DNA of 64,000 nt from an uncultured Acidobacteriota bacterium (GTDB lineage Bacteria > Acidobacteriota > Thermoanaerobaculia > UBA5066 > Gp7-AA6): contig CAVTEW010000003.1 of the NCBI GenBank assembly GCA_963733955.1, positions 1,308,322 to 1,372,321 on the forward strand, read 5' to 3'. This document shows, piece after piece, positions 21,352 to 34,410 of the stretch. Numbering within the stretch: position 1 is the stretch's first letter; each line of letters starts with the position of its first letter. The notes under the pieces were generated by a model. That model was not told the DNA's origin. It saw nothing but the letters and a program-made list of their open reading frames with translations, and did no database searches. The position numbers and the translations under genes are program-made.

Positions 21352-21392
21352 CGGATTCTCCTTCGCCTCACGCCTCACGCCTCACGCCTCAC

Positions 21393-22613
21393 TCACTTGT
21401 TCAGGATCTCGATCAGGTAGTCCGTGGCTTCCTTGTCGTGCACCAGGGAGAGCTTCTTGACGATCTCCTGGCGCCACTCCGGGCTCTTCTCCGCCCGCGC
21501 GAGCTCGACCAAGGCGTGGCCGTTGCCCTGGATGAAGAGCCCATTGAGCGCGGCCCGCCGCGCCTCCGGGTCTTTCTCCTCCTTGTAGATCGCGACCAGA
21601 GCCTGCCCGGTCTGCTCGCGGTTCATCACCCCGAGCTTGCGGATCGCCTCGCGGCGAAAGTCCGCGTTCTTGTCGGTCCGCGCGAGCTCCTTCAGGTGTT
21701 CGGCGTCGCCGGCGACGAACATGCCCTGGAGGATCGATTCCTTGACGTCCGGGTCGGTCTCCGTGCCGTAGAGCTCCCGAAGCTCCTGACGGGCGCCCAT
21801 GACTCCCAGCAGGCGCGCTGCGGCGCCGCGCAGGTGCGCGTCCTTCTCGGTCCGCGCGGCGGCCAGAACCCGGTCCTTCTCGCCGGCGGTCATGAAGCTC
21901 TTGAGGATGCGCTCCTTCATGTCCGCGCTCGCCGTCGAGGAATAGATCTCCGAGAGGATCTGCCGGCTCTCCTTGCCGCCGAAGAGGCCGAGGTATTTGA
22001 TGGCGGTGTCCTGCATGCCGGGATTGGACTTGCCCCGGGCGATCTCCGCCACGATCTGCCGGGCCTGCGGCGATCCGCTCTGCGACAGGACGAAGAGGGC
22101 CCGCTGTTTCATCTTCGGGCTCTGGGGACCCTGCAGAATCTTCTGCAGGAGCGGGAGCGCGCGCTCCGGATCGCTCCCGACCAGGCTGTTGATGGCGAGC
22201 AGCTTCAGGTCGTCGTCGCCCTCGCTCTCGGGCCGCGCGGTCTTTCCCTTGAGCTCGACTTCCAGGGCCGCCGCGTCGCCGCCCCAGCGTCCCTTGGGAA
22301 AGCGCCGCTTCAGATCCTCGATCGTGGCCAGGGCGTCCGCCCGCCGGCCGAGCTTGTTCTCGGCGTAGGCCTTCCAATAGAGGGCGCCCTCCACGCGGTC
22401 GCCCGGAAGCTGCGCGGCCTGGGCGAAGGCCTTTTGCGCCTTCTGCCACTGTCCCTCATCCAGCGCGTCGGTCCCCTCCTCGTACACGTCTTCCTGGCGC
22501 GTGTCTTCGTCGTCGTCCGCCCAGGCCGGCATCGCGCGCGGCGGGGCCGCGTGCAGAGGAGGTCCGGACAGGAGCAGGAGCAACGGGATCCACGTCAACG
22601 AGCGCGTCTTCAT
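21393..22613 (-). CDS. secreted HEAT-repeat protein
   Basis: Signal peptide MKTRSLTWIPLLLLLSGPPLHA followed by multiple HEAT-like repeats. Confidence 0.7.
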   Translation of the reverse strand: MKTRSLTWIPLLLLLSGPPLHAAPPRAMPAWADDDEDTRQEDVYEEGTDALDEGQWQKAQKAFAQAAQLPGDRVEGALYWKAYAENKLGRRADALATIEDLKRRFPKGRWGGDAAALEVELKGKTARPESEGDDDLKLLAINSLVGSDPERALPLLQKILQGPQSPKMKQRALFVLSQSGSPQARQIVAEIARGKSNPGMQDTAIKYLGLFGGKESRQILSEIYSSTASADMKERILKSFMTAGEKDRVLAAARTEKDAHLRGAAARLLGVMGARQELRELYGTETDPDVKESILQGMFVAGDAEHLKELARTDKNADFRREAIRKLGVMNREQTGQALVAIYKEEKDPEARRAALNGLFIQGNGHALVELARAEKSPEWRQEIVKKLSLVHDKEATDYLIEILNK

Positions 22614-22641
22614 TTGCTCTCCTTGGGGACTCCGCGTTTCT

Positions 22642-23364
22642 TCACGAAGTCACCGATGTCCCGGTCGAAGCCGGCGCCTGCTCGCGCGCCCGCACCCGGG
22701 CATCCAACACTCGAACCTTGAACAGCACTTCTTCCGAGTCGATCCGGCGCCGCAGCGCGGCCCGCGTGTCGGCCGTCGCGGCGCCGTGCGCGAGCTCGAG
22801 CAGCACCCGCTCGAGGTCGTCCAGCACGCTGGCGACCGCAGCGTCTCCGGCGGTCGACGCCGTCTGGCGGATCAGGCGGTTGTCGGCGGCGAGCTCCCCG
22901 GCCCGGCGGCGGGCCCCATCGGGGATCGTCGCGGCCGGATCGGCGTTGACGAAGTCGAGCAGAACGGCCTGGGAGCGCTCCAGGTGGTCGCCGACGGCGG
23001 AGAGGAGGATGCGCTCCCGAACGCTCGCCGAGAGGGGCTCGGCGCGGCGCGGCCAGGTCCGTCCGACCAGGAAGGCCGCCGCCACCAGCGCGGCAATCGC
23101 CGCGACGCGCAGGAAGGCGCGCTGGACTCCGAAGAGCGGCCGGGGAACGGGCTCCTGGGAGAGCCGCGGGGCAAGCCGGCGCCAGACCTCCCGTCCGTAC
23201 TCCTCGCCGCGCTCGGGAACCGGCGTCTCCTCGAGGCTCGCCAGAAACTCCGTCATGCGGGCCACCCGCAGGCGGCACCGCGGGCAGCCGTTGACGTGAC
23301 GGGCGGCGGGCGAATCCTCGCCGTACGCGAGCAGGATCAGGTCCTCGTCTCCCGCGTGATTCAT
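22642..23364 (-). CDS. anti-sigma factor (zf-HC2, single TM)
   Basis: MNHAGDEDLILLAYGE...HVNGCPRCRLRV zf-HC2 motif. ATG overlaps the sigma stop (ATGA). ORF 22642..23700 over-extended. Confidence 0.7.
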   Translation of the reverse strand: MNHAGDEDLILLAYGEDSPAARHVNGCPRCRLRVARMTEFLASLEETPVPERGEEYGREVWRRLAPRLSQEPVPRPLFGVQRAFLRVAAIAALVAAAFLVGRTWPRRAEPLSASVRERILLSAVGDHLERSQAVLLDFVNADPAATIPDGARRRAGELAADNRLIRQTASTAGDAAVASVLDDLERVLLELAHGAATADTRAALRRRIDSEEVLFKVRVLDARVRAREQAPASTGTSVTS

Positions 23365-23937
23365 GGCGTCTCCGCTCCCAGGGCCGCGAGCTCGCGGCGC
23401 AGCTTGGACACCGCCCGGAAGATGCAGTTCTTGGCCGCCCCCAGCCGCACGTCCAGCGCCCGGGCGATCTCGGCGACCGGCTTGCCCTCGAAGTGCCGGA
23501 GGACGAACGCGGCCCGTTCCATCGGCGACAGCGCTTCGAGCGATGCGGCGAGCTTGCGGCGCACGTCGGCGGCGAAGAGGTCCCGCTCCGGACCGCCGAA
23601 GGCGGCGCCCGTCCCGACCGAGGTCTCGCCCGTCTCGATCAGCTCGATCGGGAAAGCCGCGGCGGCGGGAGCCCTGCGCCGCAACACGTCGATGGCGCAA
23701 TTGGCCGCGATCCGGTGGAGCCAGGTGCTGAACTCGGCCTGGCCCTCGAACCTTGCCAGATTGCGGTAGGCACGTAGGAACGTTTCCTGGACCACGTCTT
23801 CGGCGTCCTCCTCGTTTCCGGTCATGCGGTAGGCCAGTCGGAAGATGTGGCGGCTGTGCCGCTCCACCAGCTCCCGGAAGGCCTCGCGATCGCCGGCCCG
23901 CGCGCGCGCCACGGCGGCGGCATCGATTCCTTCCATC
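23362..23937 (-). CDS. ECF (RpoE-like) RNA polymerase sigma-70 factor
   Basis: Region 2 EDAEDVVQETFLRAYRNL and region 4 PVAEIARALDVRLGAAKNCIFRAVSKLR. ORF 23361..24749 over-extended. Confidence 0.85.
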
Positions 23938-24073: not shown

Positions 24074-25625
24074 CTATCGCCCCCCGTCCAGGATTTCCCT
24101 GATCTTCTTTCCCAGCATGGCTGGAGTGAAGGGCTTCTGCAGGAAGTGCGTGCCGGGCTCCAGGGCGCCTTCCGGCGCCACCGCCTCGTCGCCGTAGCCC
24201 GAAACGAAGAGGACGGGCGTCCCAGGACGCAGACGCTGGATGTGAGCGGCCACGTCGCGCCCGGTCAGTCCGGGAAGCATGACGTCGGTCACCAGGATGT
24301 CGATCGGCCCTTCGTGCGTTCCCGCCGCGCCGATGGCCTCCGCCGCGTCGCCCGCGGGGATCACCGCGTAGCCCTGGAGTTTCAAGAGCTTCAGAACGAG
24401 AGCCCGCACCTCCGGCTCGTCCTCGACGAAGAGAATCGTCTCCGATCCTCTGGTGGAAGCCGTGGCCCGGGCGTGTTCGATGGCCGAAAGGGGCGCGTCG
24501 ACCCGGGGCAGGTAGACCTTGAAGACGCTTCCGTTGCCCGGCTCGCTGTAGACCCAGACGTAGCCGCCGCTCTGCTTGACGATCCCGTAGACCGTCGACA
24601 GTCCAAGCCCGGTCCCTTGCCCCCTCGCCTTGGTCGTGAAGAAGGGCTCGAAAAGCCGGGCCTGGATCTCGTGAGGAATGCCGACGCCCGTGTCGGAAAC
24701 CGCCAGCTGCGCGTATTCGCCGGGCTCGACCGGAAAGTCCTTGCGCCACCTCGTTCCGTCCAGCTCCGTGTTGCGCGTCTCGATCGAGAGTTTGCCGCCC
24801 CGCGGCATCGCGTCACGGGCGTTGATCGCCAGATTCAAGATCACTTGCTCGATCTGCCCGGGATCGGCCAGCACGTGCCAGAGGTCCGGGCTCGCCGAAG
24901 TGATGAGGTCGATGTTCTCGCCGATGAGCCGAACGAGCATGTTGGAGACGCCGCGCACGACCTCGTTCAAGTCGAGCACCCGAGGCTCCAGAACCTGGCG
25001 CCGGGAGAAGGCCAGGAGCTGGCGCGTGAGCGCCGTGGCTCTTTCACCGGCCTTGAGAATCTCCTCGGCATGCTCGCGCCGCGTGTCCCCCGCCGGCAGC
25101 TCGGTCAGGAGCAGAGCGCTGTAGCCCTGGATCGCGGTCAACAGGTTGTTGAAGTCGTGCGCCACGCCCCCCGCCAATCGTCCGACGGCATCCATCTTCT
25201 GAGACTGGATCAGGCGCTGCTCGAGCTCCCGCTGCTCCGTCACGTCGCGGGCGATGCCGACGACCGTCGGTCTCGCGCCCGAATCCCTGGAAACCGAGCG
25301 CCGCACGACGGCGAGGGTTCGCGCCGGCCGTTCCGGCAGCGAGAATTCCTCCGGCGGAACGGCAAACGACCCGCGCTCGATCGCCGCTCGATCCTCCCGC
25401 TCGTATCGGGCTGCCCGCTCGGGGTCGAAGAGGTCGCGGTCGGTCCGGCCCAGGATGGCTCCCGCGTCTCTCCCGACCAGGCGGGCGAACTCGCCGTTGA
25501 TGGCGGCGTAGCGCAAGCCCTCGTCCTTGACCCAGGCCGGATCTCCGATTGACTCCAGGAGAGCCTCCATCCGGGCCCGGTCCAGACCCGAGTCTTTCTC
25601 CCCCTCGGTCTCCCTGTCGTCCATC
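24074..25625 (-). CDS. hybrid sensor histidine kinase (PAS - HisKA - HATPase - C-terminal REC)
   Basis: HDFNNLLTAIQG H-box, HATPase G-boxes, C-terminal receiver ILFVEDEPEVR...DVMLPGLTG. Start taken at MDDRETEG. Confidence 0.85.
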
Positions 25626-25807
25626 ACTCTCCCTCGGGCGGCAACCGGTCCCCGACGTGTCTGTCGGAATGCACCGCTCCAAAGTTGAAGTGGCTCGCCG
25701 GAGGCGAAATCCACACAAACTTTTTTTGCGAAAGTGAAATAGTTGAGCTCCGCAGGCGTCATTTGGGCGCAAGGCGCCGGTTCGGTTAGAATGCCGAAAA
25801 CCCAATC

Positions 25808-26308
25808 ATGTCGACGGAGTTCCCCCAGACCGCCCGGCAAGTCGTCGAGTCGGTCCTGTTGGATCCTCAGGAACGCAAGAAACTCGTCGGTTTCGCCGGA
25901 GCGCGCTACGGAATCCGGGAAGAGGACGCTGAGGATCTGCTTCAGGAAACCGCCCTGGAGCTCCTGCGGCAGCGGCACTCCGTGAGGAGCCCCCAGGCCT
26001 ACCTGTTCACCGTTTTCAAGAACCGCTGCGTGCGGTTCTTCCGGACCCGCAAGCGGCAGGCCGCCGTCGAGCTCGACGAGCAGATGCCTGACCCGACGTC
26101 GGTCGCGGCGGGGGAGAAGCGGGAACGTCATCTGGCCGTCCGCCAGGCGCTGTGCCGAATCTCGTCCGCTTGCCGAAAGCTCCTGGCGTCCTTCTACGTC
26201 GAAGGCAAGAGTCTCAAAGAAACGTCGGCGGAGAGCACGTATGCTTTCAGCGGGATGGGCAATACGATCAATCGTTGCCTGGAGAGACTTCGCGCATGCA
26301 TGGAATGA
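25808..26308 (+). CDS. ECF sigma-70 family factor
   Basis: Region 2 EDAEDLLQETALEL and region 4 LKETSAESTYAFSGMGNTINRCLERLR. Confidence 0.8.
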   Translation: MSTEFPQTARQVVESVLLDPQERKKLVGFAGARYGIREEDAEDLLQETALELLRQRHSVRSPQAYLFTVFKNRCVRFFRTRKRQAAVELDEQMPDPTSVAAGEKRERHLAVRQALCRISSACRKLLASFYVEGKSLKETSAESTYAFSGMGNTINRCLERLRACME

Positions 26309-27693
26309 CGCAGCACCTCGACGACTTCACCCTGCTGCGTTACGTCGCGGGTGACCTGGACGCGTCGGAACGAACTGCGGCGTCCGAACACCTCGATGCC
26401 TGCGCCCCCTGCAAGGCAACCCACCGCGAGATCGAAGAATTGGACGAGGAGCTGAAGGCGATCGCGCAGGATCCGTCCACGCGGCTGGACTTCGAGGTCG
26501 AGGAGCTGCCGGAGGAGGATCCGTTCCTAAGGCGGCCACGACGGGAGTCTCGCATGCGCCGCCCCAATCGGGACACGCCGATGGCGAGCGCCCTCGAAGC
26601 CTCCGAGGAAGGGGGAGTGCTCTCCGGAACTGTTCTGTCCGCGATCAAGGGCTGTCCTGAAGATCTGCAATCTCTTGTCGATCGCCTGGATCTTACGGAC
26701 TTGTCTTATCGCTTCGCGCTTCTCTACGGCCTTCAGGAGGCGGGGAAGCGGATCTCGGAAGCCCCTTACCGGATTCTGCGATCAGCCGAGTCCTTGTTGG
26801 AGAAGCTCCGTCGAGACGGTCCGAGTGCCGACCGGATCGTCCCGGAGGAGCTCCTGAACGGTCAGATCCATCAGCTTGCCGGTAGTGCATGCCTCTGGAC
26901 GGGGGAATACGACAAAGCGGGTACTCACCTGCATTTGGCGTACGAGTACCTCGGTACGACGAGCGACGACACTTCGCTCGCAGTCGTCGAGCTGTTCGAG
27001 GCTCAGCGTCGATCGTTCTTGGGACGTGGGAACGAAGGACTGGCCCTCGCGCGCCGCTCGTTCTCGACCTTCGAGTTGTTCGAAATGAGGGACTACATGG
27101 CTCGCGCCCGGGTCGTCATCGGGCTTGCGCTCTTCGATCTCGGCAAGTACCAGGAAGCAGTGGAGTCCTATCGTCTGGCGATTCCAACCTTCGAGTCCGA
27201 AGGCCTTTGGGCGAACTATGTCGGGGCCGTCAACAGCGTCGCCACGGCCTTGGAGCGCCAGGGAAATCTCGACGGCGCACGCCGAGAGTTCGCGCGCGCC
27301 CTGAAGCGAGTCTCCCGTGAACGGGACCGCGCCTTCGTCGCCGCTATCCGAAAGGGGCTGGCCGAAGTTCTCTTCTCCGCGAAACGGTATCGCGAGGCGG
27401 CGATCGCATCCTCCCAAGCCGGTCGCCTCTATGGCGAAACGAAACAACTTTACTTTCGGTTGTGGGCCCTGCTCTTCGAGATCGAGAGTTGGGCCCGGGC
27501 CGGTGAGGCCGACCGCGCCTGTCACCGCCTCGACCTGTTCCGATCGGAGGTTGCCCGTCTCGGAGCGCTGGATGGATCGATCTGCCGAAACATCGAGTCG
27601 GCTCTCAAGGGTGAGCGTCAGGACTTTGCCGCGATCGCGCTCTTGAGGACAGAGGCCTCGGAGACCCTCAAGGAGCGTTTGCTCGGCGCTTAG
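26296..27693 (+). CDS. anti-sigma factor: zf-HC2 N-terminus with a cytoplasmic TPR-like C-terminal domain
   Basis: LLRYVAGDLDASERTAASEHLDACAPCKA. Overlaps the sigma stop by 13 nt. ORF 26152.. over-extended. Confidence 0.7.
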   Translation: MHGMTQHLDDFTLLRYVAGDLDASERTAASEHLDACAPCKATHREIEELDEELKAIAQDPSTRLDFEVEELPEEDPFLRRPRRESRMRRPNRDTPMASALEASEEGGVLSGTVLSAIKGCPEDLQSLVDRLDLTDLSYRFALLYGLQEAGKRISEAPYRILRSAESLLEKLRRDGPSADRIVPEELLNGQIHQLAGSACLWTGEYDKAGTHLHLAYEYLGTTSDDTSLAVVELFEAQRRSFLGRGNEGLALARRSFSTFELFEMRDYMARARVVIGLALFDLGKYQEAVESYRLAIPTFESEGLWANYVGAVNSVATALERQGNLDGARREFARALKRVSRERDRAFVAAIRKGLAEVLFSAKRYREAAIASSQAGRLYGETKQLYFRLWALLFEIESWARAGEADRACHRLDLFRSEVARLGALDGSICRNIESALKGERQDFAAIALLRTEASETLKERLLGA

Positions 27694-28066
27694 CCTCCGA
27701 TACCAAGACCCCCCCGAAAAAATCTGTCAAAAAGCGCCCCTTCCTAGGCACGTACTAGGTCGGAAGGCGGCCATGGAGCGCTCCACTCCGCTTCCAGATT
27801 CCCCGCCCAGCGCGGGAACCAAGGAGGTTGTGTGTGAACGCCGAAAATACGCCTGTTCCGGCCTGAATCTCTGGCCCCCGTCGGTCCGGCTCGCGCGGGC
27901 CGGGCCGGCGGCCTTCGTTAGGTCAGCTCAACCCCGTGTCCGGTTGGCGATCGGCTAATAATCGACCGCGTGACTGGAGGGCGACGCAGCAGGCGACGTG
28001 GGTCGGCTTCTCGACGATCGTCATCGCAGGATGACGTTGGAACCGGTCCAGGGAAGTCCCTCAGAC

Positions 28067-28377
28067 GATCCACGGAAGCCTTCTATCGCGAGTATTTTCT
28101 GCCGCTCGTCCGCCGGGCGACCTGGCGGCACGGACTGTCCTCCGACGACGCCCGGGATATCGTGCAGGACGCCTTCCTGATCGCGCTCGAGAAAATGGAT
28201 TTCGCCAGAAGCCTGGAAGCCTGGATCCTCTAGAGGGGCGCGGCCGGCCATCGAGGAAGAGAAAATGATCCCCGAAGGCATCGCGGCTTACGGCCTTCTC
28301 GGCGAATCCGTCCGCCGCCGTCAGATCAACCGCCAGGCCCTGCGCGATCTTCACGGCTACTTCCGCCACGATCGCTG
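28067..28377 (+). pseudogene. decayed remnant of a sigma-region-2-only / TPR-partner cassette: a region-2 fragment, then a 38-aa C-terminal partner fragment
   Basis: FYREYFLPLVRRATWRHGLSSDDARDIVQDAFLIALEK (28067-28233) resembles the 30974 gene product. MIPEGIAAYGLLGESVRRRQINRQALRDLHGYF (28264-28377) matches the C-terminus of the 31353 protein (KMVPEGMAALALLRQSLRNHRINREALRNLHGYF). Confidence 0.55.
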
Positions 28378-28494
28378 ACCACTGCGGGCTTCAAATCCGC
28401 CGCCCGTCCTCGGGACCTGGGAACCCTCTCACGGAGCACGGCTTACTCCTCGCGACACTAAGTTAGGTAGAGGATTGCTCTGAGAGGAGGGACC

Positions 28495-29670
28495 ATGCGG
28501 AGTCGGACCGCGGTCGCGGCATCGATCGTCGGCATTTTTCTCAGTCTTCCAGCAGTCGGTCGGCAGGCTCTTGCGAGTGCGGATGCGGGCGGCCAGAGCC
28601 CAGCGGCCGGCCTCCACCGATCGGCGACGAAGCCAGAGAACGTCGCGGCGAGCAATACCTGGTTCTACACGATCCGCGACGAGAACAACCGGCCGGCGAT
28701 CGAGTATCACCTCGGCCAGGCCGGCAACGTCATCACCGATCGCATTTACGCCTACCTCGGCAACACATTGGTAGCCACCTACGAGGCGAGCGGCAATTCG
28801 CCCGGGTGGGTTTACTACGGCACCGATCACCTGGGCTCCGTGCGGACCGTGATGTCCGGTACGACCTGCACGCAGCAGTTCCAGCCTTTCGGCGAACCGG
28901 CCGGGCAGAGCTGCTCAACTGGCAGCCCGGTCAAGTTTGCCGGCATGGAACGAGACTCGACCTCTGGCAACGACTACGACCATGCGAGGTTCCACGGGGG
29001 GGGGAGCACGCTGGGACGGTTCCTCGGTCCTGACAAGCTCCAGGGTCATCCTGCCGATCCGCAGTCCTGGAACCGTTACGCATACGCCCGGAACAGCCCG
29101 GTCACTCTCATCGATCGCAATGGCATGGAGTTCGGCTCGCCGGGTGGAGGTGCCGAGCTGCACACGGCTGTCCTAAACTTTGAGGCGACCTACCATCACA
29201 GCGAGCCGGCGATGGCTGAGCTCGGCCAGTCGGTCGCCCTGCAAGAGACCCTTGGTCCCGTGGGAACGGCGGCTGTGCTCATCTCTGGCGCCGGCCCTGC
29301 GGTCAGACTCATCTCAGAGATCTCGAGCATTCGGCCTCCCACTGCTCCGCGCGAGGCCGATTCGAACACGCTAGGGCCCGGCCCGTACTCGGGCAGATCG
29401 ATTCCGGCTCGTGGAGAGCAACGCAATTTCACCGTAGCAGAGCGATCTCAAATTAACGAGGCAGGTTCAGAAACCGGCTGTCATACCTGCGGTACAAAGG
29501 TTCCAGGAACAAAGAGCGGAAATTTCGTTCCCGACCATCAGCCTCCGAACGCGCTCAACGAGCCGGGCGAGCCGCAACGTCTGTATCCGCAATGCATAGA
29601 CTGCAGCCGGCAGCAGGGCCTTCAAATCATCCGCACATTGAAGGACGTCCTGGGACCGCCCGTGAAATGA
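28495..29670 (+). CDS. small secreted RHS-repeat-associated-core toxin: signal peptide, RHS core, then an HNH/EndoVII-like nuclease-type C-terminal tip (putative)
   Basis: Signal peptide MRSRTAVAASIVGIFLSLPAVG. The core (WFYTIRDENNRPAIEYH...YYGTDHLGSVR...FAGMERDSTSGNDYDHARFHGGGSTLGRF) is near-identical to the core of the giant rhs. C-terminal CHTCG...DHQPP...CIDC motif. Confidence 0.8.
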   Translation: MRSRTAVAASIVGIFLSLPAVGRQALASADAGGQSPAAGLHRSATKPENVAASNTWFYTIRDENNRPAIEYHLGQAGNVITDRIYAYLGNTLVATYEASGNSPGWVYYGTDHLGSVRTVMSGTTCTQQFQPFGEPAGQSCSTGSPVKFAGMERDSTSGNDYDHARFHGGGSTLGRFLGPDKLQGHPADPQSWNRYAYARNSPVTLIDRNGMEFGSPGGGAELHTAVLNFEATYHHSEPAMAELGQSVALQETLGPVGTAAVLISGAGPAVRLISEISSIRPPTAPREADSNTLGPGPYSGRSIPARGEQRNFTVAERSQINEAGSETGCHTCGTKVPGTKSGNFVPDHQPPNALNEPGEPQRLYPQCIDCSRQQGLQIIRTLKDVLGPPVK

Positions 29671-30895: not shown

Positions 30896-30973
30896 GCTAC
30901 TGCACCCAAATCACTTCGCACTCGCGACATATAGCTGTTAGGAAGGTGCTTTGAACGACGGCATCGCATTCGC

Positions 30974-31336
30974 TTGAGCGGATGGAAGGGGCGATTCTCG
31001 CCCTCGCGCCGGGTGGCTTCACGCCGGGTTGTCAGCCCCGAGAAGCTCGAGGAATTCCATCTCAAGTTCTTTCTGCCCCTCGTGCGGCGAGCGATACGGC
31101 GGCATGGACTTTCGAACGAGGATGCCCGTGACGTTGTTCAAGAAGCTTTTGTCGTCGCGCTCGCCAAGCTCGGCTCAACCAGCTATGCCCTGGCTTGGTT
31201 GAAGCAGGTCGTGGACTTTCAGTCGATCAATCTGAAGCGGACGTCCGCGCGCCGAGCACGGCTCCTTGCGCAGTGGGCTGGAACGAGTCTTCCCGAAGGT
31301 TCCACTCTGCTCGAAGTCCCGGCGGACGAAATCTGA
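30974..31336 (+). CDS. sigma-70 region-2-only protein (no region 4)
   Basis: FFLPLVRRAIRRHGLSNEDARDVVQEAFVVALAKL...AWLKQVVDFQSINLKR matches sigma70_r2. The protein ends ~40 aa later with no region 4 helix-turn-helix. Confidence 0.6.
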   Translation: MSGWKGRFSPSRRVASRRVVSPEKLEEFHLKFFLPLVRRAIRRHGLSNEDARDVVQEAFVVALAKLGSTSYALAWLKQVVDFQSINLKRTSARRARLLAQWAGTSLPEGSTLLEVPADEI

Positions 31337-31352
31337 CGTGCGGAGTAATCAA

Positions 31353-32957
31353 ATGGCCACCCAGATGATGAGAGATCAGATCGCTGCGTGGCTCGAAGCC
31401 ACTCGAGGCATTGAGCTCGTGGTGGGGCTCGACGCGAAAGAGGCGGAACGGCGGGCGCTCGCGCTACTCGCGGCGATCCTGGAAAATCGGATCTCGCCCG
31501 ATTCTATGGTCCTCGACGAGGAAGCCAAGCAGGTCCTCTCAATTCTCGTCAGGCAGCTCGCCGAGTTGAACGCGGATAAAGGCGATCGTCTCCGCCAAGC
31601 GGCTGCCGTTGCGAGATTTATCGGTCGCCTTCGATGGTCCGATGACAACTTCGGCGAGAAGGAGGATCTTCTTCTCGAATGCGAGCAGGTTGGCCTCGGT
31701 GAGGACGGGATAACTCTTGGAGGAACCCCACCGAACACTCCGGAGTTCGAAGTCCACGCCGGCAAAGTGGATCCGATCAAAAGCGAGTCTCTGCAGCTCC
31801 AGATCGGCCTGGCCCCCACATTCCCGGTCATCGGTGGAGGGGAGAATACCAATTCGTCAAGGTCTGGTCGGCCGCGCCGGCGGCTGCTCTCCGAGAATCA
31901 GGCGAGCGAGGCGGCCGAGCGAACTTTGGCAATTCCAATTTCGGAGCGCGCGGGCAAGGAGATCGAGCTCCGGCTCGAAGCGCCGGAGACACTGTTGGCC
32001 ATGAGCGGCCTCCTGCGTGCGCGCCTGGATGTATCGCCGGCGACGGCCCGCGAGGAGGCGGATTACCTCTATCGGTTCCTGGACAAGCCGAAGCGGGAAA
32101 TCGGGCTCTTCGACGAGAGAGATTATTTCCTTGGCGAGATGGCGTTGATCGCGGCGACGGCGTGCAGACACCTCTCACTTCGTGAAGATTCCAAGCGCTG
32201 GCTCGATCGATCCGAGGCCGGGTTCCGCAAAACGATCAACGGGGCCGCGGAATGGGCGCGGGTCTCGTATCAGCGGCTGGCCTTGAGAATGGAGGAGCGG
32301 GAGTTCGAAGAGGTCTTGAGTCTGGCTCCATCTCTCTTCGATGATCTGGTCAACCGAGGCATGGGGGAGCACGCAATCAAGTGCCGATTCTTGGAGGGTG
32401 GAGCGCTGATCGAGATGGGCCGACTGGCGGAGGCGGTGAAAATCTTCGAGAGCCTCTGCGAGCATTGCGCACTTTTGAAGAACGAGAACCTTCTTGCAGG
32501 CGCTTACACGAACCTGACCCATTGCCATGCTCTACTCGGTGAATCGAAGGAAGCGCTCTCGGCCTCAAAGGAGGCTTCTCGGCTCTTACGGCGGGCCGGT
32601 GACCGGATCGGCTTGGCAAAGCTTCAGTGGTTCCTCGGAAATCTTCTTCGCGAACAGCATCAACTCACCGCAGCAATAGAGATTTATCGCTCGGCGCAGA
32701 GTGAATTCAGCGAGCTCTCCATGCAGGCCGACGTCGCGGCGATTCACCTGATCGTGGCGGATCTCATGCTGGAGCTCGGCCAGGACGCCCAGGCCCGCTG
32801 GGAGATCCAGGCGGCGCTTCCGGTGATCGACGAGAAGAAGATGGTGCCGGAAGGCATGGCGGCCCTTGCCCTCCTTCGCCAGTCCCTACGAAATCACCGC
32901 ATCAACCGCGAGGCGCTGCGAAACCTGCACGGATACTTCGAGGATCTGGGCTCTTAA
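31353..32957 (+). CDS. TPR-like partner protein (similar to the C-terminal domain of the 26296 anti-sigma; lacks zf-HC2 and TM)
   Basis: ATG 31353 (MATQMMRDQIAAWL). Alpha-helical TPR-like C-terminal half. Its C-terminal tail is repeated in the 28264 remnant. Confidence 0.6.
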   Translation: MATQMMRDQIAAWLEATRGIELVVGLDAKEAERRALALLAAILENRISPDSMVLDEEAKQVLSILVRQLAELNADKGDRLRQAAAVARFIGRLRWSDDNFGEKEDLLLECEQVGLGEDGITLGGTPPNTPEFEVHAGKVDPIKSESLQLQIGLAPTFPVIGGGENTNSSRSGRPRRRLLSENQASEAAERTLAIPISERAGKEIELRLEAPETLLAMSGLLRARLDVSPATAREEADYLYRFLDKPKREIGLFDERDYFLGEMALIAATACRHLSLREDSKRWLDRSEAGFRKTINGAAEWARVSYQRLALRMEEREFEEVLSLAPSLFDDLVNRGMGEHAIKCRFLEGGALIEMGRLAEAVKIFESLCEHCALLKNENLLAGAYTNLTHCHALLGESKEALSASKEASRLLRRAGDRIGLAKLQWFLGNLLREQHQLTAAIEIYRSAQSEFSELSMQADVAAIHLIVADLMLELGQDAQARWEIQAALPVIDEKKMVPEGMAALALLRQSLRNHRINREALRNLHGYFEDLGS

Positions 32958-33044: not shown

Positions 33045-33809
33045 TTACCGCGATCGTCGAACCCTTGGCGTATCCTCTTTGAGAACGAGGCGCAGGAGCC
33101 TTTCCAGCCGGGCGTCGGCCGAGAGGTCCGGGGCGGCTTCGGTTGCCAGCTGCCGGTGCTGGCGCGCGAACTGAATCGCCGCGGAAACCACGAGCGCCTT
33201 GGGATTTCTGGGGGGCATGGCGCTGCGCTTCCAGAACCTAGAGAACCACGCCTCCAGCTCTCGTTCCAGCAGGCGGATTTCCGGATCGGTGAACCGCCAG
33301 ACTTCAGCGAGCAGAACCCGGACGAGGGGGAGCGCACGATCCAGAGTGAGCAGGAGCTCAGTCTCCAACGTGCTACGTCCTGCGCCTGCGGGAGGCTCCT
33401 CGGGTCCGAAGGCCGTTTCGTGCGATTCGGCGATCGGCTCTGACACCGTACGCAGGTGCGCCGTTGCGCAAGCTCGCAGCAGAGACTCCTTTCCGTTGAA
33501 CTCGCCTTCCCACGAGAGTCCCTGGATGAACCCCTGGACCGATTTCGCGCGTCGCTCGATCTCGCCGGGAAGTCGGCCTGGGCCTGGGAGAACGCGGTAG
33601 GCGAGCGCGTAGAGGATGTTCTTCAAGTCATCGTCGAGATTTATCGTTTCGGGGTTCGCGGTGCCGTCGTGGATCGACCGCTCCAGCAATTCGGCGCGGA
33701 GAATCGTTTCGTCTTCGTCAATGCGAGAGTGTGTTGCCTCCTGGATGAGCGTGGCCATCCGGTCGACCCAGTTCTCCAGTTCGCGGTCGTACGGGCGGTG
33801 GCTGCGCAT
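33045..33809 (-). CDS. partner protein of the minus-strand sigma-region-2-only gene (anti-sigma-like, alpha-helical)
   Basis: ATG (MRSHRPYDRELENW) overlaps the upstream stop as ATGA. ORF 33045..34676 over-extended. Confidence 0.5.
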   Translation of the reverse strand: MRSHRPYDRELENWVDRMATLIQEATHSRIDEDETILRAELLERSIHDGTANPETINLDDDLKNILYALAYRVLPGPGRLPGEIERRAKSVQGFIQGLSWEGEFNGKESLLRACATAHLRTVSEPIAESHETAFGPEEPPAGAGRSTLETELLLTLDRALPLVRVLLAEVWRFTDPEIRLLERELEAWFSRFWKRSAMPPRNPKALVVSAAIQFARQHRQLATEAAPDLSADARLERLLRLVLKEDTPRVRRSR

Positions 33810-34378
33810 CAATCCTCCTCTTTCCCAGGACGCGCCCGAGCGGCGTCCGGACCCCAGTAGGCGAGAAGCGTGGCACGGCGGCCGCGCTTTCGGTTGAAGT
33901 TGAGGACGAGCCGTTCGACAACGCCCTCGAGCCATGCTCGCGTGTCTTTCAGAGGCCCCGTCCTTTCGAGGAGAACCACGAACGCCTCCTGAACGACATC
34001 CTCCGCGTCTTCGGGCGGGAGGCGGTGCTTCCAGCGCACTTCGATCGCGAGTTCCTTGAAGAGAATTGCGTATGAGCCATTGAGCTCCTTGAATCTCAGC
34101 TCGTCCGAAGCTCGAAAGGCGCTGCGCCAGCGCAGAGGGCTCCGCCTCGCCCTGGCTCGGGCCGCCGCGCCCGCTCCTCGCCCTTCGGTCGCGCGCATGC
34201 TTTCGTGGGTGCTCTTCGACATAGTAGTGTCGCGAGCCCCAAATCCTTTTTCCTGAGAACGTTCCAGAGCATACAACGAACGGCGGTCTCGGCAAGCCGC
34301 GCTTGGTCGGTGGCCAGAAGCCTGTCCGAGCACTCTCGCGCAACTTGCTGCGTGCCTGTCGGTTCTCGTTCGCGACAC
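33809..34378 (-). CDS. sigma-70 region-2-only protein (second paralog; true start may be an internal Met near 34225)
   Basis: PPEDAEDVVQEAFVVLLERTGPLKDTRAWLEGVVERLVLNFNRKR region 2, no region 4. Confidence 0.55.
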   Translation of the reverse strand: MSRTRTDRHAASCARVLGQASGHRPSAACRDRRSLYALERSQEKGFGARDTTMSKSTHESMRATEGRGAGAAARARARRSPLRWRSAFRASDELRFKELNGSYAILFKELAIEVRWKHRLPPEDAEDVVQEAFVVLLERTGPLKDTRAWLEGVVERLVLNFNRKRGRRATLLAYWGPDAARARPGKEED

Positions 34379-34410
34379 TAAGAAGGTAGAGAAACCAGTT
34401 ACGAGGGTCG

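Follow-up and report, generated by a model that had tools for sequence, protein, structure and literature searches.

At positions 27970-28378 of the stretch of DNA analysed here (the window, 64,000 nt from an uncultured bacterium of the Thermoanaerobaculia, Acidobacteriota), two pieces of protein-like sequence lie end to end upstream of the gene for an orphan Rhs-tip toxin. What are these pieces, and how did they come to be joined? They lie within an island of about 62% GC that spans roughly 25.5-44.5 kb of the window, whose overall GC content is 67%. An earlier note on this DNA had taken them for the remains of a sigma region-2 gene and its TPR partner after recombination or deletion between paralogous cassettes. 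The segment is very probably a non-functional pseudogene scar, left by a diverged second cassette made up of a sigma-region-2-only gene and a TPR-partner gene.

The first piece is a truncated gene for a sigma-70 region-2-only protein on the forward strand (27970-28233), which has a GTG start and 87 codons, and ends in a TAG at 28231-28233. Its product carries an Arg-rich N-terminus and regions 2.1-2.2, but the conserved QVVDxLxxNxxRKxxRR segment is absent: the ORF ends in ...EAWIL*, while relatives run on for another 35-45 residues. Pfam recognises Sigma70_r2 (PF04542) at 24.3 bits, above the gathering threshold of 24 (E 2.7e-5), in a partial match that covers profile positions 4-53 of 71. The region 2 domain is incomplete, the region 2.3/2.4 helix (WL.QVVD..L.N..RK..RR) being missing. 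The idea of a sigma fragment without a start codon was dropped, as alignments from residue 1 with the intact in-window paralogue and with a relative on contig L088 make the GTG at 27970 the native start. The upstream region (27901-27962, forward strand) contains two boxes, CTTCGTTAGGTCAG (27901-27914) and GGCTAATAATCG (27951-27962). These have aligned counterparts, CCTCGTTGTAGGTCC and GCTGAGATAAATTG, before the most similar intact sigma-r2 genes (L088, L087), and may act as a promoter. When 27600-28600 was scanned for generic sigma-70 promoters and for terminators, no promoters were returned, and terminators at chance level only.

The second piece is the end of a TPR368-type gene (28232-28378, forward strand), in a different frame from the sigma ORF. 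It consists of the last 48 codons (28232-28375) and a TGA stop (28376-28378), and an internal ATG at 28265-28267, preceded by the SD-like GAGGAAGAG, opens a 37-codon ORF. At the junction (28231-28236) the sigma homology stops and the homology to the TPR tail starts, with a +1 change of frame and no filler DNA. This placement comes from register alignments to L084 on the sigma side and to L003 on the tail side, and tblastx gives one block on either side (28075-28227 and 28232-28363). In alignment, the TAG at the join sits where relatives have a conserved CAG (Gln). Full-length relatives are 94-121 aa long for the sigma proteins and 368-535 aa long for the TPR proteins, and thus both pieces are truncated. 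Truncation with respect to full-length homologues, an abrupt switch of homology and disruption of the frame by a stop, the usual marks of a pseudogene, are all found in 27970-28378. The body of the TPR family (upstream of residue 322) has no homology anywhere in 27600-28232, and an Rfam scan of 27400-28700 gave no match. Among the antisense and neighbouring small ORFs no Pfam hit passed threshold, the weak DUF7012 match (E 0.06) reaching 13.8 bits against a cut-off of 27.

An intact cassette for comparison lies further along the same strand (30974-32957). It comprises a sigma-r2-only gene (30974-31336), in which Pfam finds Sigma70_r2 only, and a gene for a 534-aa partner (31353-32957) with TPR/SNAP matches. 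When the scar region is searched against the whole window by blastn, exactly two other places match, both in this cassette: 28081-28189 pairs with 31055-31163 (71.6% identity, E 2e-10), and 28237-28363 pairs with 32813-32939 (69.3%, E 3e-9). In proteins, the 87-aa ORF and the 120-aa ORF at 30974 can be aligned from their first residues onward (64.7 bits, E 4e-20), which indicates that the native start of the sigma gene is still in place. For the 48-aa tail, the match within the 534-aa protein is to residues 486-529 (59% identity, E 5e-17).

These alignments to 30974-32957, far above chance in nucleotides and in protein, bear out the note's pairing of the region-2 segment with the protein at 30974 and of the tail with the C-terminus of the TPR protein at 31353, with some adjustment of limits. 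The sigma homology begins at 27970 rather than at 28067, and the tail begins at 28232 and has 48 codons, not about 38. The spacer of about 30 nt that had been described between the segments does not exist: the tail homology overlaps the TAG of the sigma ORF by 2 nt, so that the gap is ~0 nt. The interval absent with respect to the in-window cassette is 31205-32807, or 1,603 nt, instead of about 1.8 kb. On both sides of the junction, the scar and the in-window cassette share 54-59% of amino acids and 63-67% of nucleotides over aligned codons. The near-identity to the in-window copy that homologous recombination would leave on either side of a junction is absent. Thus the view of the segment as a deletion remnant stands, while an exchange between the in-window copies is at odds with this level of identity and with the non-homologous join.

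What, then, is the origin of each half? Most members of the very large family that includes the TPR partner are 368-aa proteins, and the family comes from Thermoanaerobaculia (P0002-P0120). The scar tail is 85% identical in amino acids to the C-terminus of P0029 over all 48 residues (E 8e-28), and 81.7% identical in nucleotides to positions 6158-6299 of L003 over 142 nt, stop included. Compared with 114 stand-alone 368-aa members, it shows a median identity of 66% and a maximum of 85%, versus 55-62% for the long (475-535 aa) sigma-partner type, the in-window protein included. The family's C-terminal motif, ...PV(I/L)EE.KMVPEG.AA..LLR.S.R...INR.ALR.LHGYF, is found in the 48-aa tail; the TPR-repeat body of about 320 residues that precedes it in the family is missing from the scar. 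On the sigma side, the nearest relatives are 94-121-aa region-2-only proteins from short soil-metagenome contigs (P0121/L084, L087 and L088). The scar is 78% identical to them in nucleotides, ungapped over 150 nt in the case of L084, and 78-84% identical in amino acids over the core, and its alignment with the L088 sigma-r2 protein starts at residue 1 (95.5 bits, E 3e-32). On these three contigs a partner gene follows the sigma gene, with an N-terminus similar to the extension that opens the in-window 534-aa protein. As the scar matches other Thermoanaerobaculia genes more closely than it matches the in-window cassette, it is not a recent in-window duplicate. Judged by these identities, it is a diverged paralogue or xenologue of the neighbouring cassette.

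Genes of this kind usually stand in a four-gene module, seen in 80 genome loci and about 45 metagenome loci, whose order is up121, 368-aa TPR gene, sigma-r2-only gene and ~500-aa partner (for example L095 4359-7786, L100 4349-7771 and L098 1239-4624, among L004-L083 and L085-L130). Here up121 stands for a protein of about 120 aa of unknown family, and the ~500-aa partner is made up of an N-terminal extension and TPR repeats. This module is very common in soil Acidobacteriota, and it is uncharacterised. Its annotated sigma-r2 starts probably make the proteins about 21 codons too short, as an upstream ATG after GGAGG gives MSSRAKQ.... The suggestion that up121 is a cryptic sigma-2 domain was abandoned: hhalign against the sigma-r2 profile returned a probability of 0.6%, and neither PDB nor Pfam gave a match. 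L086, where a 37-aa ORF precedes the sigma gene, was likewise set aside as a second tail-only scar, since tblastn reveals a full, frameshifted TPR368 gene there, probably owing to long-read indel errors. The in-window 534-aa partner looks like a fusion: an N-terminal extension of about 165 aa precedes a TPR protein of the 369-aa type in its full length, which shares 73-75% identity with P0002 and P0003, both of which stand alone. The extension is related to a 254-aa protein on the minus strand (33045-33809) and to L003 6301-6969.

From these comparisons, a model of the event can be proposed. One illegitimate deletion would have brought sigma codon 87 directly against the start of the last 48 codons of a TPR368-type gene, with the loss of sigma regions 2.3-2.4 and of nearly all of the TPR protein. 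The frame shift and the TAG at the junction would then have left at most an 87-aa truncated sigma fragment. Because the joined sequences are non-homologous and overlap by at most about 2 nt, the deletion appears to have been illegitimate, at the level of microhomology, and to have occurred within one diverged copy. Its length depends on the ancestor. If the ancestral partner had a TPR368-type body like that of the in-window one, a loss of about 1.6 kb is plausible, and this would imply a partner ending in ...EEEKM(I/V)PEG(I/L)AAYGLL.ESVRRRQINRQALRDLHGYFRHDR. The deletion may have measured at least about 3 kb if it ran from the sigma gene through the long partner and the up121 gene into the next TPR368 gene. 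Since the tail is nearer to the stand-alone 368-aa type than to the long partners, more than one sigma/partner pair may have been involved. Moreover, the canonical module has TPR368 upstream, not downstream, of sigma, and an intra-pair deletion therefore needs a partner with a TPR368-type body. Such a partner exists in the window, which keeps the simple deletion of about 1.6 kb plausible, but it is not the common arrangement.

The same observations also lend themselves to an event more complex than a simple deletion in one pair, although this would be an unlikely source of the junction. The deletion could have crossed two adjacent cassettes (sigma, long partner, small gene and TPR368, at least 3 kb); the breakpoint could have come from a toxin/immunity module, carrying a TPR tail and the promoter motif, that was inserted or transferred beside a sigma gene; or the join could be a tandem-duplication junction of the canonical adjacency between a TPR368 tail and sigma. 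The closeness of the tail to stand-alone TPR368 proteins agrees with such routes, although the 369-aa-type body of the in-window 534-aa partner makes two cassettes unneeded. TPR368 precedes sigma-r2 in dozens of loci, where duplication from the tail to the sigma 5' part gives exactly this join. Yet a tandem duplication predicts an intact TPR368 gene upstream and a near-identical tail-sigma copy downstream, and both are absent: the upstream gene is unrelated and encodes a zf-HC2/TPR anti-sigma-like protein, and the sigma gene that follows shares only 54% identity. The nearest intact genes of the two halves do sit on separate, unrelated short contigs (L084, L087 and L088 versus L003 and L004), but at 929, 1335 and 1715 nt, respectively, the first three are too short to show whether the halves co-occur.

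For the simple deletion, the pattern of substitutions gives a relative date. With respect to the nearest intact relatives, the sigma fragment shows 4, 4 and 25 differences at codon positions 1, 2 and 3 (dN/dS 0.06), and the tail fragment 5, 3 and 21 (dN/dS 0.08); neither contains internal stops or indels. This third-position bias and these low ratios indicate that the divergence arose under protein-level selection, that is, before the deletion. Even when all changes at positions 1 and 2 are assigned to neutral decay after the deletion, they make up no more than roughly one tenth of the divergence as a whole. The deletion is thus recent in comparison with the separation from the closest relatives known, the alternative, of low probability, being that the fragments are still under selection. 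The absence of secondary lesions and the retention of the start and upstream region also speak for a young scar.

Continued function would, however, equally predict a native start, conserved upstream boxes and a low dN/dS. The remnants would then be functional small genes, with the 87-aa product as a decoy for RNA polymerase or for paralogous TPR partners, the 37-aa tail peptide as a product, or both. This is very improbable indeed. The lack of internal stops and indels and the low dN/dS agree with such a role, but a recent deletion accounts for the low dN/dS equally well. The scar is unchanged between two strains, but these are identical across the whole 23.5-37 kb stretch, so that its identity carries no information. 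The GAGGAAGAG and ATG of the tail peptide simply stem from the EE(E/L)KM motif that the family conserves, and no stand-alone tail peptides occur among the TPR homologues examined. In addition, the conserved C-terminal third of the sigma domain is missing, whereas even the shortest (82 aa) of the 10 sigma-r2 homologues found with the scar fragment as query still has the region 2.3-2.4 segment. It is also very improbable that the 87-aa fragment is still expressed, titrates RNA polymerase or TPR partners, and in this way tunes TCGYGACA..TA promoters of sigma-r2, rhs and the Rhs-tip toxin.

Finally, it is extremely improbable that the similarity stems from chance, high-GC composition or an assembly chimera: although the genome is rich in GC (67%) and both strands of the window contain many spurious ORFs, matches at E 1e-10 to 1e-32 link the scar to several independent sequences in nucleotides and in protein, their differences are biased to third codon positions, and the junction is identical in independent assemblies.

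One of these assemblies (L001, ENA ERZ25039551 contig_35777) is a 352-kb contig from a near-identical strain, in which the scar is identical; a Logan contig from ERR12037362 has the same ORF layout as the scar. An assembly artefact is therefore unlikely. L001 matches the window base for base over about 23.5-37 kb, except for one G in the homopolymer at 28996-29004. It differs, by 3-20% per 500-nt bin, only at 21364-23500 and 37000-42507, the second stretch lying inside rhs, and this mosaic, identical between two divergent stretches, suggests recombination tracts. No pre-deletion allele was found at the same locus, as the only close relative found, L001, has the same scar.

The surroundings of the pseudogene scar place it in a larger pattern. 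Downstream of the sigma 5' part and the TPR tail come 70 unmatched nt, a 22-nt motif, the gene for the 391-aa Rhs-tip protein (28495-29670, forward strand) and an Imm33-like immunity gene. The Rhs-tip protein has a signal-peptide-like N-terminus, the end of an Rhs core and a toxin. Its gene is 77.6% identical to the main rhs over 446 nt (28641-29086 versus 42168-42610, toxin residues 48-212). The main locus runs from an up121-family gene (orf30362) through the sigma-r2 gene (30974), the 534-aa partner and a divergent pair to rhs (34411-43248), which encodes RHS repeats and a CDI_toxin_EC869-like tip. The divergent pair, on the minus strand (33045-34198), consists of the 254-aa protein, whose family is unknown, and a second sigma-r2 protein of 129 aa (33809-34198), the two genes overlapping. 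Four blocks are collinear between the two loci: sigma, TPR tail, the shared upstream motif and the Rhs core end. This collinearity upholds the earlier proposal that a further copy of the cassette once stood upstream of the orphan toxin in main-locus order. It also supports a wider reading, in which a second sigma-TPR-rhs-immunity locus, lying upstream of the intact one, has collapsed, with the scar, the Rhs-tip toxin and the immunity gene as its apparent left end. The second locus would have lost most of its regulatory cassette and the divergent pair, and probably the rhs body too. As the Rhs-tip toxin has its own motif and its own ribosome-binding site, its expression should be independent of the scar.

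The contig of P0002 shows the order "small gene, TPR369, divergent pair, Rhs, immunity" again, and L003 shows part of it; the same divergent pair adjoins Rhs on L003, on L004 and on the contig of P0002. The 80 genome loci retrieved through the TPR368 profile (L004-L083) have no rhs within 10 kb, so that the link with rhs seems specific to a subclade. For the first 75 residues of the orphan toxin, searched with an internal rhs deletion in mind, no homologues were returned, and its N-terminus has no significant similarity to that of the main Rhs protein. An exact-match look-up of the whole protein found no record. Within its gene, a tract at 28996-29004 is G9 in the window and in the Logan contig L002, giving an in-frame 391-aa protein. 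The same tract is G10 in L001 and in the Logan contig from ERR12037362, with a frameshift that yields 179 and 229 aa, and the main rhs carries GGGGGTGGG at the equivalent position. Either phase variation or a sequencing error in the homopolymer could account for the difference. Another pair (25808-27693) lies immediately upstream of the scar and encodes a 166-aa Sigma70_r2-only protein and an overlapping 513-aa anti-sigma-like protein with zf-HC2 and TPR. It is not detectable as a paralogue of the scar cassette, and is adjoined by a hybrid histidine kinase gene (24074-26131, minus strand).

The motif that bounds the scar is part of a wider set. An element of the form CTCG(Y)GACA(A/C)TAT(G)TAAGTAAGG, followed about 45 nt downstream by GGAGG and a start codon, lies upstream of sigma-r2 genes in many loci of Thermoanaerobaculia and soil metagenomes (it can also be written CTCG(Y)GACA(A/C)TA..TAAGT.AGG). 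A relaxed pattern has 49 sites in 1.77 Mb of fetched loci, 32 of them 113-145 nt upstream of the conserved EAFY position, and precedes 32 of 43 sigma-r2 genes versus 1 of 80 up121 genes. Beyond the window, the motif occurs in L078, L080, L081, L083, L085, L086, L092, L097, L098, L100, L111 and L013. The window itself holds four sites for TCGYGACA[ACT]N0-1TA, where 0.08 are expected. The first, CTCGCGACACTAAGTTAGGTAGAG (28449-28472, core at 28450, forward strand), ends 23 nt before the ATG of the orphan toxin, with a GGAGG ribosome-binding site in between. The others precede the intact sigma-r2 gene (30922-30945, forward strand), rhs (34370-34391, forward strand) and the minus-strand sigma-r2 gene (34235-34212). 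In the subclade to which the scar belongs (L087, L088), the upstream box takes a variant form, which the scar keeps. Additional copies are seen on L019 (about 7221, minus strand), before a gene for a small signal-peptide protein, and on L003 (4132, forward strand), before a 79-aa gene upstream of an up121/TPR369 pair; going by their sequence, these are possible further targets. The distribution of the motif is consistent with a candidate shared promoter or operator that would link sigma-r2 cassettes to Rhs toxins, and its fixed distance upstream of the sigma genes suggests, by analogy with ECF systems, autoregulation. Its presence before sigma-r2, rhs and the Rhs-tip toxin offers a testable hypothesis for toxin regulation.

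How does the locus compare with known systems? Like ECF systems, the cassette pairs a sigma-2 domain related to ECF with a co-encoded partner, and the family profile A3 matches the ECF sigma-2 domains of SigJ, SigW, SigR, CnrH, SigL, SigH and SigE in the PDB. However, the scar ORF, its 120-aa paralogue, the minus-strand 129-aa paralogue and the database relatives of 82-100 aa show Sigma70_r2 only. No sigma-4 domain was detected in the sigma protein or in any partner, and so the parent sigma falls outside the definition of ECF (group 4) factors. In addition, the partner is a cytoplasmic-looking TPR protein and not a membrane anti-sigma factor. The nearest functional analogy for the parent sigma protein may be SigO-RsoA of Bacillus subtilis, a split sigma factor with sigma-2 and sigma-4 on separate polypeptides (cited in PMC7826278), which serves as a lead only.

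The neighbourhood also recalls the Rhs "rearrangement hot spots" with orphan toxin/immunity modules (Poole et al. 2011, PMC3150448; Koskiniemi et al. 2014, PMC3967940). As in those loci, a short Rhs-tip gene shares the end of its core with a full-length rhs nearby, has its own immunity gene and lies among signs of rearrangement. In contrast to them, the tip gene is here upstream of the main rhs rather than downstream, and it is equipped with a start codon, a ribosome-binding site, a signal-peptide-like N-terminus and a promoter-like motif of its own. The lesion, too, lies in the adjacent regulatory cassette, and a non-homologous join, instead of recombination between core repeats, appears to have produced it. 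The scar documents turnover, by non-homologous deletion, of the sigma-r2/TPR cassettes that flank Rhs toxin genes in this Thermoanaerobaculia genome, and suggests that a second, diverged regulator-rhs-immunity locus was reduced to a stub. In itself it is of little weight, and the uncharacterised module around it, with its conserved motif, is the more interesting lead.

The scar also resembles the pseudogenes that illegitimate, microhomology-level deletion leaves in bacterial accessory islands, which share with it a 5' fragment joined to the 3' fragment of the next gene, no filler, a lost frame with a stop at the join, and full-length homologues elsewhere. It differs from them in having no secondary lesions, in keeping its 5' start and upstream region, and in coming from an uncharacterised parent family. 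By this comparison, it is an ordinary, young and probably inert deletion-derived pseudogene.
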